DNA of 64,000 bases from Escherichia coli (lineage in GTDB: Bacteria > Pseudomonadota > Gammaproteobacteria > Enterobacterales > Enterobacteriaceae). Made by a program: the position numbers and the translations under genes. Under the pieces are notes generated by a model, which was not told where the DNA came from, did no database searches, and saw nothing but the letters and a program-made list of their open reading frames with translations. The stretch is from the NCBI RefSeq assembly GCF_003334785.1, contig NZ_QOWV01000001.1; one strand, 5' to 3'. How positions within the stretch are numbered: the stretch's first letter is position 1; each line of letters opens with the position of its first letter. Below are positions 33,376 to 34,647 of the stretch, piece by piece.

Positions 33376-33377
33376 GT

Positions 33378-33422
33378 GACTCCTCCATTTGGCTGTCAGT
33401 TCACTTTCAGTATGGAGGAGTC
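33378..33422 (-). promoter_or_regulatory. Stem-loop in the mdtH-grxB spacer whose 3' arm contains the grxB Shine-Dalgarno
   Basis: Plus gactcctccat (33378-33388) and atggaggagtc (33412-33422) are perfect 11-nt inverted repeats with a 23-nt loop; on the mRNA strand the 3' arm ATGGAGGAGTC holds GGAGG 2 nt before the GTG start. Confidence 0.5.
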
Positions 33423-33438
33423 AGGGGGGAGTATCAAA

Positions 33439-34647
33439 TCAGGCGTCGCGTTCAAGCAAACGACGCGCGGCGCGTTTCTGGCTAAACTGCCAACCCAGCG
33501 CAAGGAAAGTGAAGATGCCAATAATGCCCAGCATCATCCACGGAAGCTCTGGCTGGTGCGCCGATTTGCCCAGGTCAAACAGCCAGCCGCCACCGATATA
33601 ACCAATAGCGCCGCCAATCGCCAGACCCAGACGGCTAAACCCCATATAGCTGCCGCGAGCTCTTGCGTCCGCCAGCGAAGCACTTAAGGTTTCACGCGCA
33701 GGCTCGGCAATGATCGACCCGATATAAAACAGACAAATCAGGGTGAAAAGTTGTTGCAGGCCGCTGACCATGCCCACCGGCATCATGCTTAATGACATTA
33801 TCAACAGCCCAGCCATCAACCGGTGTTCCAGACGAAAATGCTTTTCACTCCAGCGGGCGATAGGGTAGAGCAACGTTAACGACAGACACGCTTCAATGGC
33901 ATACATCCATTTAACGGCAGAGGGCGCGCCAGCCACGTCGTTGACCATAATTGGCAGCATCAGCATCACTTGTACAGCCAGCATGTAGTAACCCGCCAGC
34001 GTCAGAACATAGGTGACAAAACGCTTGTCACGCATCACGCGGGTCATGCCTTCGCGAACGGGCGTGCGTACGGTGGAGAGTTTCCATGCTGGTAACAACC
34101 ACGCATTGAACGCCGCACATAGCACAAATAGAACTGCCCCTGTGGCGCAGACCAGGCGAAAGTCGTATTGCAACAGCCAGCTCCCCAACAATGCGCCAAT
34201 GACCGCACCGGCACTGTCCTGCATCATCAACAGCGAGAAAAAACGACCACGCTGCTGTGGACGGATTAATTTCACCACCAGCGCCGAACGCGGCGGATCA
34301 AACAACGTGCCACCGAGTCCCGAGAGCAGGCATGAAAACCACAATAGCCACGGTTCGTGGGCGATACCCATTGTGGCGAATCCGGCGGCGCGCATCAGCA
34401 TACCGGTAACAATCATCGGTTTGGCACCAAAGCGGTCGGCAATTGCACCGCCGAAAATACCCAGACCTTGCTGAATAAATTGGCGTAGACCGAGAGCAAT
34501 ACCGACCATGACGGCGGCCCAGCCCATTTGATCAACGAAGCGGATAGAGATCAGCGGGAAGACAACAAAGAACCCCAGCACGACCAGCATATTATCGATG
34601 AGCAGGAAATATTTACCCAGGTTCCTCGCCTGCGACACGCGGGACAT
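33439..34647 (-). CDS. mdtH: MFS multidrug resistance transporter MdtH
   Basis: ORF 33439..34677 trimmed to the ATG giving [19 protein letters not shown]..., 402 aa, polytopic. Confidence 0.9.

Follow-up and report, generated by a model that had tools for sequence, protein, structure and literature searches.

Inhibition of transposase translation by fold-back of outside transcripts has reportedly been described for IS10 and IS50, in studies attributed to Davis, Simons and Kleckner in 1985 and to Schulz and Reznikoff in 1991. The native transcript of these elements is said to contain only the distal arm of an inverted repeat and to be translatable, and outside transcripts, which contain both arms, are said to sequester the ribosome binding site. 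A related arrangement is encoded in sigma54 promoters. Levy et al. (bioRxiv 10.1101/086108, later Cell Reports 2017) found, in the portion of glnKp and other sigma54 promoters that is not transcribed, CT-rich anti-Shine-Dalgarno (anti-SD) motifs that silence read-through expression, and in approximately 17% of E. coli promoters a hexamer anti-SD:SD pair that is close to perfect spans the transcription start site (TSS). IS200 tnpA has an SD-sequestering hairpin in its 5′UTR (PMC4513863). In this last case, as in RNA thermometers and riboswitch expression platforms, both arms are located in the gene's own mRNA and regulate it.

The stretch of E. coli DNA analysed here (the window, 64,000 nt of contig NZ_QOWV01000001.1) contains an inverted repeat between mdtH and grxB, which encodes glutaredoxin 2 (Grx2). 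The two genes are co-oriented, with mdtH 63 nt upstream of grxB. The coordinates are listed in Table 1. The arms are complementary at all positions (12/12 bp, 100%). The preliminary description was right that the repeat is perfect and gave its length as 11 bp; it is 12 bp. Following the minus strand, 15 nt separate the mdtH stop codon from the 5′ arm, which is followed by the loop, the 3′ arm, a single C, and the GTG start codon of grxB. Other details of that description agree with the sequence, namely the 23-nt loop, the GGAGG ribosome binding site in the 3′ arm, the GTG 2 nt past an 11-bp stem, and the absence of a T-run 3′ of the stem. The stem had been placed about 17 nt past the mdtH stop codon, and it begins at the 17th nucleotide for the 11-bp arm or the 16th for the 12-bp arm. 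A terminator scan found no terminator-like site in the 63-nt gap. The end of mdtH is without a terminator, whereas the end of grxB has a terminator-like hairpin.

Table 1. Features of the mdtH-grxB region (positions in the window)
Feature	Position	Strand	Remarks or basis
mdtH stop codon TGA	33439..33441	minus	
-35 hexamer TTGATA	33432..33437	minus	one nt past the mdtH stop codon
Inverted-repeat 5′ arm UGACUCCUCCAU (anti-SD)	33412..33423	minus	sequence, promoter geometry, mapped TSS
-10 hexamer CATACT	33409..33414	minus	preceded by T(-14) C(-13)
23-nt loop between the arms	33389..33411	minus	last three bases of the -10 hexamer, discriminator, mapped TSS
grxB TSS (+1, G), 27-nt leader GAACUGACAGCCAAAUGGAGGAGUCAC	33402	minus	Kim et al. 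2012 Table S1
Inverted-repeat 3′ arm AUGGAGGAGUCA	33377..33388	minus	+15 to +26 of grxB mRNA; sequence
SD core GGAGG inside the 3′ arm	33386-33382	minus	sequence
grxB GTG start codon	33373..33375	minus	RefSeq-annotated start
grxB CDS (glutaredoxin 2, 215 aa)	32728..33375	minus	
Terminator-like hairpin	32688..32715	minus	13 nt past the grxB stop; 12 pairs, 8 G-C, tail CGTTTTCAGT

The isolated hairpin has a predicted folding energy of -21.9 kcal/mol (z = -5.7). It survives when folded in a 101-nt context, a check that the preliminary description had proposed, and also in a 199-nt read-through context. As a bare pattern the 12-bp repeat is only mildly improbable; the window contains two inverted repeats that are perfect over 12 bp or more and have loops no longer than 40 nt, as compared to 0.22 expected from Markov simulations. 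What sets the repeat beyond chance is its conservation in E. coli, the in-register stems across Enterobacteriaceae, and the outlying degree of SD sequestration.

The grxB promoter overlaps the repeat. TTGATA and CATACT, separated by 17 bp, form the sole promoter-like site on the minus strand between 33200 and 33900, and the promoter is of the -35/-10 type, not sigma54 (-24/-12). The 5′ arm corresponds to promoter positions -21 to -10, that is, the 3′ part of the spacer and the first three bases of the -10 hexamer. In E. coli K-12, the grxB TSS was mapped to 1123304 (U00096.2) with 34 reads and a 5′UTR of 27 nt (Kim et al. 2012, PMC3415461, Table S1); the -50 to +1 sequence in that row ends ...CATACTGAAAGTG. 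In that study, 5′-triphosphate RNA was enriched using terminator exonuclease; the grxB start is a primary, exonuclease-resistant one. The mapped +1 is inside the loop, exactly 7 nt past CATACT and 27 nt before the GTG. Comparison of 82 sequences (80 orthologous loci, the window, and K-12) showed TTGnnn in 82/82 and an invariant CATACT in 82/82. TTTGnnn and CATACT are spaced by 17 bp in 81/82, the exception being L043, in which the spacing is shifted by one. TC-CATACT fits the sigmaS-type (T/G)C-TAYACT with C at -13 except for the C at -12; the K-12 lineage has T at -13 (window 33415), and the position that varies between C and T among genera is -15. grxB is cited in PMC5807413 as regulated by ppGpp and sigmaS, and is reported as a single-gene transcription unit; the supplement of the sigmaS ChIP-seq study of Peano 2015 contains no entry for grxB or mdtH.

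As the TSS falls in the loop, the 5′ arm is absent from the primary grxB mRNA. The preliminary description had proposed that the stem masks the SD, and that a GTG start with an occluded SD makes grxB translation tightly controlled. Masking holds for any RNA with both arms but not for the primary grxB mRNA, whose leader is unremarkable on folding (-12.2 kcal/mol, z = +0.46, no special structure). With the start in the loop and the leader unstructured, the proposed control of grxB mRNA is not supported; that description had itself named a grxB start downstream of the 5′ arm as evidence against it, and the published K-12 start is located there. A cis-acting control hairpin within the grxB mRNA, melted for initiation, would explain why a very stable stem covers the SD. 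It is already contradicted by the TSS in the loop, with the 5′ arm at -21 to -10, and by the leader without structure, and no Rfam family scored above threshold; we regard it as extremely improbable. At a permissive E-value, the Rfam scan gave nothing but hairpin-like families below threshold and matched on the wrong strand, namely mir-186 and the best hit, rdlD, which scored 20 bits (gathering score 50). Thermometer-like or riboswitch-like control needs both arms in a gene's own primary transcript, and that of grxB does not contain them.

Since the 5′ arm is promoter and outside the normal mRNA, masking of the SD is limited to transcripts reading through from mdtH. The calculated cost of opening the grxB SD rises from approximately 5 to approximately 17 kcal/mol in the read-through RNA, with no rise when the extension is shuffled. 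Among 60 Enterobacteriaceae sequences (58 other species or genomes, the window, and K-12), the median cost is 4.6 kcal/mol in the primary RNA, 14.3 in the read-through RNA, and 5.1 with a shuffled upstream extension; the cost is up by at least 4 kcal/mol in the read-through RNA in 54 of the 60. Upstream extension of the leader at the 32 SD-bearing ORF starts in the window gave an SD sequestration of 9.3 kcal/mol for grxB, by far the largest, 4.5 for the next-best start, and a median of 0.1.

These data suggest that the inverted repeat is, somewhat more likely than not, a promoter-embedded anti-SD element that acts as a translational insulator against mdtH read-through. At the DNA level, the CT-rich 5′ arm serves as part of the spacer and -10 region of a sigma-70-family promoter. 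RNA polymerase starting inside the loop yields the normal grxB mRNA, with the 3′ arm only and a free, strong SD (GGAGG). RNA started upstream, for which the expected source is mdtH transcription across the terminator-less 63-nt gap, would carry both arms and would be predicted to fold into a stem of approximately -20 kcal/mol, in which the SD is buried along with, in several genera, the start codon. grxB would then be untranslated from the read-through RNA, and Grx2 synthesis would be tied to grxB's own stress-regulated promoter. As secondary effects, the untranslated RNA might be exposed to Rho termination or decay, and the stem could double as a 3′ protective hairpin for the mdtH mRNA. Read-through RNA from mdtH into grxB is plausible since there is no terminator between the genes, grxB has one, and the TSS read counts in exponential phase are comparable (58 for mdtH, 34 for grxB; Kim et al. 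2012, PMC3415461). A search for direct evidence of such RNA, or of a block to its translation, came up empty, and the supplements of Adams 2021 (Term-seq), Yan 2018 (SMRT-Cappable-seq), and Ettwiller 2016 (Cappable-seq) contain no mdtH or grxB entries. A fuller scheme is possible, and we put it forward tentatively. The 12 nt would be dual-coded, as stress-promoter spacer and -10 in DNA and as anti-SD in RNA; the grxB ribosome binding region of Enterobacteriaceae would have evolved to complement a pre-existing promoter motif; Grx2 would be translatable only from its own sigmaS/ppGpp-controlled promoter; and RNA reading through from mdtH would go untranslated, Rho would end its synthesis inside grxB, and trimming back to the stem would also set the mdtH 3′ end.

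By analogy, the grxB element resembles both the CT-rich sigma54 insulators and the fold-back inhibition of IS10 and IS50, and insulation at grxB would be of a kind already known. As in the sigma54 insulators, a pyrimidine-rich motif is located upstream of the gene's own TSS (-21 to -10), a few tens of nucleotides from the SD to which it is complementary (12/12 bp across a 23-nt loop); pairing is possible only in upstream read-through RNA, and the proposed outcome is the same, silencing of read-through with the promoter's own transcript spared. The grxB promoter, in contrast, has the -35/-10 (sigma70/sigmaS) architecture, and promoters of that class are less enriched in such pairs according to Levy et al., which is a difference in context and not in a mechanistic requirement of their insulators. 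The grxB stem is contiguous over 12 bp (10-15 bp) as compared to motifs of 3-5 nt, and its motif overlaps the -10 hexamer itself, unlike those of the sigma54 insulators. The support for the grxB element is conservation across genera, and that for the sigma54 insulators is experimental. Like IS10 and IS50, grxB has an inverted repeat that brackets the native TSS with the distal arm over the ribosome binding site; it is, however, a core chromosomal housekeeping or stress gene and not a transposase gene at the end of a mobile element, and its upstream transcription comes from the fixed, syntenic mdtH rather than from a random insertion context. With IS200 tnpA, RNA thermometers, and riboswitch expression platforms the grxB element shares a predicted anti-SD:SD stem of the kind that blocks the 30S subunit, but its 5′ arm is outside the primary mRNA.

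If functional, the element would be a clean natural example of a promoter determining the translatability of the mRNA it initiates, with one promoter stretch doubling as an RNA anti-SD. Promoter-encoded translational insulation would then reach beyond sigma54 promoters and insertion sequences to a core redox gene with an ordinary sigma70/sigmaS promoter, and grxB would be an evolutionarily maintained natural example at a sigma70-family promoter. Such an element would explain independent regulation in tightly packed gene pairs without a terminator, and RNA-seq signal over grxB while mdtH is transcribed need not equal Grx2 production. If the element is non-functional, the locus is a caution that two independently constrained motifs can produce conserved complementarity.

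The mdtH-grxB pair is a core-genome locus, present in 5426/5426 E. coli genomes and syntenic across Enterobacteriaceae. A 61-nt segment is found in 5416 of the 5426 complete genomes and is identical in 3869. The conservation across Enterobacteriaceae that the preliminary description had asked about is there, with in-register stems of at least 10 bp in 49/60 sequences. Most taxa have a stem of 10-15 bp, and both arms carry changes particular to a lineage. The base of the stem reads TGAC/GTCA in Escherichia, CGTTTC/GAAACG in Klebsiella, and GCGTTC/GAACGU in the Cedecea/Siccibacter group, which has lost one T together with one A; such covariation events are few (two or three lineages). One core pair is U.G in 23/51 distinct sequences, and K-12 has U.G at another. 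U.G pairs form only in the sense-strand RNA, and the pairing therefore speaks for RNA rather than DNA. Pairs are broken in Buttiauxella and in L022, L034, L047, and L054. Depending on the genus, the arms are about 21 to about 38 nt apart; the 3′ arm in every case lies on the SD, and it reaches into the start codon in some genera. Across taxa, 77% of cells are paired, as compared to 72.8% in shuffles that are not phylogeny-aware (0/500 reach 77%) and 40-57% with the partner slid. Identity over -20 to -1 is 0.73 for grxB and 0.81 for mdtH; conservation of the 3′ arm was rejected as evidence for pairing, as the initiation region of neighbouring mdtH is conserved to an equal or greater degree. As a counterpoint to insulation, each arm is under a constraint of its own, from the promoter in one case and from the translation-initiation region in the other. 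Two loci that have lost mdtH serve as natural experiments and are mixed, the arm being absent in L043 and kept in L056.

In 22 Erwiniaceae loci, the CT-rich core TCTCYTCCATACT is equally conserved, with sequestration in 0/22. This promoter motif, kept without sequestration, indicates that the core of the arm is at least partly a promoter element. At 12/22 of these loci, divergent rimJ is upstream of grxB and there is therefore no read-through source; Erwiniaceae with identical mdtH-grxB synteny are also without such a stem.

The repeat could be a by-product without function, in which the conserved spacer/-10 motif TCTCYTCCATACT happens to complement the purine-rich SD UGGAGGAG, the extra pairs arising from a T-rich spacer facing the A-rich SD-start spacer and from occasional template-switch mutations that perfect the quasi-palindrome. 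Template-switch mutation can yield apparently compensatory changes in a quasi-palindrome without selection. The Erwiniaceae fit this explanation, since they keep the motif regardless of a co-oriented upstream gene and without sequestration; so do the core pairs, which hardly vary, the ordinary conservation of the translation-initiation region, the frequency of hexamer anti-SD:SD pairs among E. coli promoters, and the expected frequency of a 12-bp inverted repeat, which is only approximately fivefold rarer than one per window. The by-product explanation does not account as readily for stems of 10-15 bp in 49 of the 60 Enterobacteriaceae sequences, which extend past the SD core and also past that part of the promoter which is deeply conserved, or for Escherichia, which leaves both the T-run and the A-run and keeps the pairing. 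The coupled loss of T and A in the Cedecea/Siccibacter group, the excess of paired cells over the shuffled and slid controls, and the position of grxB as an extreme outlier in the window also argue against it, and we consider it unlikely, though a serious contender. The hairpin might instead be an mdtH 3′-end element, chiefly a 3′ exonuclease barrier or a processing site that defines and stabilises the mdtH mRNA, with only incidental overlap of the SD. mdtH has no intrinsic terminator, the stable hairpin is kept in the read-through context, and trimming as far as a stem is common for transcripts terminated by Rho. A stabiliser would not need any particular position, yet the 3′ arm is always on the SD; the Erwiniaceae with the same synteny lack the stem, and no mdtH or grxB 3′ end appears in the Term-seq supplement of Adams 2021. 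We judge this role improbable as the main explanation. It is not mutually exclusive with insulation; the alternative in the preliminary description, an element acting on mdtH-derived RNA, is compatible with the evidence, and grxB would not be translated from such RNA.

That a perfect palindrome overlaps the promoter would also suit a DNA-level element, either a palindromic operator bound by a dimeric regulator or a cruciform with an effect on promoter activity, and a stable stem-loop shortly past a stop codon is a feature shared with Rho-independent terminators. Operator and cruciform were rejected since the arm spacing varies among genera and the G.U pairs of the RNA would be mismatches in DNA (G.T or A.C in nearly half of the taxa); the 23-nt loop further disfavours a cruciform. 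An intrinsic terminator of mdtH was rejected as well. The stem is followed by CGUGAAGCUAUAC with no U-tract and its loop is long, which explains why the terminator scan makes no call. Taken as one class, operator, cruciform, and terminator are very improbable, and the insulator reading remains our preferred one.

A small ORF from an ATG in the 3′ arm (33212-33388) was rejected, as many genera have CTG or CAG in place of that ATG. Enterobacteriaceae start grxB with GTG; the same codon is mostly ATG in Erwiniaceae, where two Mixta loci (L066 and L072) have GTG.

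The inverted repeat lies in the gap between mdtH and grxB, and its 3' arm holds the GGAGG Shine–Dalgarno (SD) sequence of grxB. The arms returned by the inverted-repeat search are 12 nt each, 100% complementary and 23 nt apart; the repeat is as perfect as the preliminary description had it, and one pair longer than the 11 bp given there. The gene layout assumed there, including the GTG start, matches the RefSeq annotation. Folded alone, the hairpin has a free energy of -21.9 kcal/mol (z = -5.7), and it is the dominant structure in both 101-nt and 199-nt contexts. An intrinsic terminator was rejected, as it had been before: no T-run follows the stem and the terminator scan makes no call. 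As a bare pattern the repeat falls short of overwhelming; the window contains two perfect inverted repeats that are 12 bp or longer and have loops of no more than 40 nt (0.22 expected). The other, also a perfect 12-bp repeat, has an A-run and a T-run on its flanks and an adjoining REP-like GCCGCATCCGGC, and resembles a bidirectional intrinsic terminator.

Positions of the features discussed (minus-strand features read 5' to 3')
Feature	Position	Strand	Sequence
mdtH stop	33441-33439	minus	TGA
Stop to 5' arm		minus	TTTGATACTCCCCCC
-35 hexamer	33437-33432	minus	TTGATA
5' arm (anti-SD)	33423-33412	minus	UGACUCCUCCAU
K-12 substitution	33415	minus	C to T
-10 hexamer	33414-33409	minus	CATACT
Between arms		minus	ACUGAAAGUGAACUGACAGCCAA
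Mapped +1 of grxB	33402	minus	G
3' arm (SD)	33388-33377	minus	AUGGAGGAGUCA
3' arm to start		minus	C
grxB start	33375	minus	GUG
58-aa ORF	33212-33388	minus	
Terminator-like hairpin	32688-32715	minus	tail CGTTTTCAGT
Second 12-bp repeat	22852-22880		AAAAATACCGGC-gttat-GCCGGTATTTTT

The sole promoter-like site on the grxB strand in 33200-33900 has a 17-bp spacer, and its -10 hexamer shares bases with the 5' arm at the end nearest the loop. Kim et al. (2012; PMC3415461) mapped primary 5' ends of E. coli K-12 MG1655 in mid-exponential phase by terminator-exonuclease enrichment of triphosphate RNA. The grxB entry in their Table S1 gives one transcription start site (TSS; 1123304 in older coordinates, minus strand, 34 reads, 27-nt 5'UTR), with AACGCGACGCCTGATTTGATACTCCCCCCTGACTCCTTCATACTGAAAGTG as the -50..+1 sequence. 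The last G of this sequence, the +1, is located exactly 7 nt past CATACT and within the hairpin loop; the 5' arm, which occupies promoter positions -21 to -10, is therefore outside the primary grxB mRNA, which starts GAACUGACAGCCAAAUGGAGGAGUCAC-GUG. The primary leader plus the first 54 coding nt (-12.2 kcal/mol, z = +0.46) is no more structured than shuffled sequences. The hairpin is thus very probably absent from the mRNA begun at grxB's own promoter. The observation in the preliminary description is confirmed and its interpretation partly supported; the occlusion of the SD within the grxB mRNA that it proposed is contradicted by a mapped TSS downstream of the 5' arm. A riboswitch or thermometer-type 5'UTR element was rejected because the two arms do not occur together in the grxB mRNA. 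Regulation of grxB by ppGpp and sigmaS, as reported in the passage of PMC5807413 that cites Potamitou et al., and its entry in a Crl-regulon compilation, where it forms a transcription unit of its own and no transcription factor is known for it, both fit the own-promoter picture.

The comparison covered 80 orthologous grxB loci (58 from Enterobacteriaceae, 22 from Erwiniaceae; a single locus for each GTDB species), together with the window and K-12. TTTGnnn precedes CATACT in all of them, with a 17-bp spacer except in locus L043, and TCTCYTC is conserved as the 3' half of that spacer. The Enterobacteriaceae leader is 25-42 nt long, and its GTG start codon is preceded by (A/C)UGGAGGAGAAAC. The in-register helix was tested on a gapless alignment of both arm regions. 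Paired cells amount to 77%; shuffling the partners between species gives 72.8 ± 0.5% (none of 500 shuffles attains 77%, in a control that ignores phylogeny), and sliding the partner by 1-3 nt brings the figure down to 40-57%. At the eight core pairs, pairing holds in 88% or more of the distinct sequences. At one of them, 27 distinct sequences have C-G and 23 have U.G, and K-12 has U.G at a different core pair through its C-to-T change; such wobble pairs function in sense-strand RNA only, which speaks against an antisense RNA as well as a cruciform or operator in the DNA. The outer pairs vary by lineage yet still pair, being UGAC/GUCA in Escherichia, CGUUUC/GAAACG in Klebsiella (extending to the G of GUG) and (G/A)(C/U)GUUC/GAACGU in the Cedecea/Siccibacter/Dryocola group, where the 3' arm is one A and the 5' arm one U shorter; the both-side changes trace to two or three lineages only. 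Uncompensated changes occur in some taxa (Buttiauxella, GAGU-AAC; also loci L022, L034, L054 and L047). In-register pairing runs without a break for a median of 12 bp (range 2-15 bp), and for 10 bp or more in 49 of the 60 Enterobacteriaceae sequences; examples of hairpin energies are -19.0 (K-12), -22.6 (Klebsiella spallanzanii) and -26.1 kcal/mol (Enterobacter sp. R1).

Of 5426 complete E. coli genomes, 3869 match the 61-nt segment exactly and 734 carry the exact K-12 allele. Sampled variants hit the C-run, the loop or position -1 (T to A), and the arms are intact throughout the sample. One E. coli locus (L086, UID2309220027) has a 1-nt deletion in the C-run upstream of the arm, reducing the -35/-10 spacer to 16 bp. 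The T for C of the K-12 lineage lies at -13 of the grxB promoter, a position associated with sigmaS selectivity.

Sequestration was measured as the computed free-energy cost of single-stranded GGAGG in RNAs that begin at the predicted +1, in RNAs that begin 15 nt before the -35, and in the latter with the upstream extension dinucleotide-shuffled. Median costs for Enterobacteriaceae are 4.6, 14.3 and 5.1 kcal/mol, respectively, and the upstream start raises the cost by at least 4 kcal/mol in 54 of 60 sequences. The Erwiniaceae values are 3.0, 3.6 and 3.8 kcal/mol, with an increase in 0 of 22. When the leaders of 32 SD-bearing ORF starts in the window were lengthened from -27 to -80, grxB was the extreme (+9.3 kcal/mol; second-highest 4.5, median 0.1).

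We lean towards the grxB pairing being a selected read-through insulator. Transcripts begun at grxB's promoter would lack the anti-SD and be translated freely. RNA arriving from mdtH, which lies 63 nt upstream in the same orientation with no terminator between, would carry both arms, and a stem of about -20 kcal/mol would hide the SD; Grx2 synthesis would thereby be bound to its own stress-regulated promoter. Judging by what de Smit and van Duin reportedly established about the stability of SD hairpins, an added 9-11 kcal/mol should be enough to abolish initiation. As plausible corollaries, the untranslated RNA would be terminated by Rho or decay, and trimming to the stem would leave mdtH with a protected 3' end. 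The mdtH and grxB entries of PMC3415461 give comparable TSS reads (58 and 34). No direct evidence of an RNA spanning the junction, or of a 3' end there, was found in the published Term-seq, SMRT-Cappable-seq and Cappable-seq supplements searched.

Fold-back inhibition in IS10 and IS50 has the same architecture as the grxB repeat. Of the systems described so far, the nearest is the CT-rich anti-SD insulator that Levy et al. (bioRxiv 10.1101/086108) place in the part of sigma54 promoters that is not transcribed. Those authors point out explicitly that a promoter carrying the CT motif cannot itself transcribe it, report that mutating the motif lifted silencing of read-through expression, and find a near-perfect hexamer anti-SD:SD pair spanning the TSS at 1383 of 8174 E. 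coli promoters, with enrichment among sigma54 promoters. The grxB promoter, unlike theirs, is of the -35/-10 type. Further differences are that the grxB stem is long and contiguous and takes in part of the -10 hexamer, that the gene belongs to the core genome and its upstream neighbour is fixed, and that the support is comparative rather than experimental.

The main rival, which we consider rather unlikely, is that two motifs, each under its own constraint, yield the pairing as a by-product. The CT-rich arm core ATCTCTTCCATACT is as strictly kept in Erwiniaceae, where no sequestration is predicted, and TCTCTTC directly precedes CATACT (spacer -19..-13) in 22 of 22 loci; some of the constraint on the core, at least, must thus act on the DNA and relate to the promoter, and the conservation points to a role of the spacer that would predate the Enterobacteriaceae hairpin. 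Conservation of the 3' arm is no higher than that of other initiation regions (mean identity over -20..-1 in the same genomes: grxB 0.73, mdtH 0.81, yceB 0.68, rimJ 0.51). Template-switch mutation can perfect quasi-palindromes without selection. In 12 of the 22 Erwiniaceae loci mdtH is absent and a divergent rimJ lies upstream, so there is no read-through source. Two natural experiments on mdtH loss give a mixed picture. An arrangement without mdtH and with the divergent rimJ directly upstream of grxB is found in L043 (1-460; Enterobacteriaceae MAG bran_bin.7), where GGGTTATCAA replaces the CT-rich arm while the -35, -10 and SD remain; this single natural case is consistent with insulation. 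Locus L056 (1050-2500; Cedecea sulfonylureivorans) keeps a 14-bp anti-SD stem despite having, instead of mdtH, about 1.4 kb with small ORFs, one encoding an 80-aa lipoprotein-like product.

An out-of-frame 58-aa ORF overlapping grxB, from an ATG in the 3' arm, was rejected as a conserved gene because the ATG reads CTG or CAG in many genera. The Erwiniaceae leaders (L061-L083) are 52-79 nt long and contain a 7-bp hairpin (GGGTGAC/GTCACCC and variants) about 20-35 nt past the predicted TSS, with both-side changes at 5 of 7 pairs; ACGGAnnnnnTCCGT occupies a comparable position in the leaders of Buttiauxella and Cedecea. A terminator-like hairpin of 12 pairs, 8 of them G-C, is located 13 nt past the grxB stop, and the yceB entry of Kim et al. 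(PMC3415461) gives that gene a separate TSS downstream.
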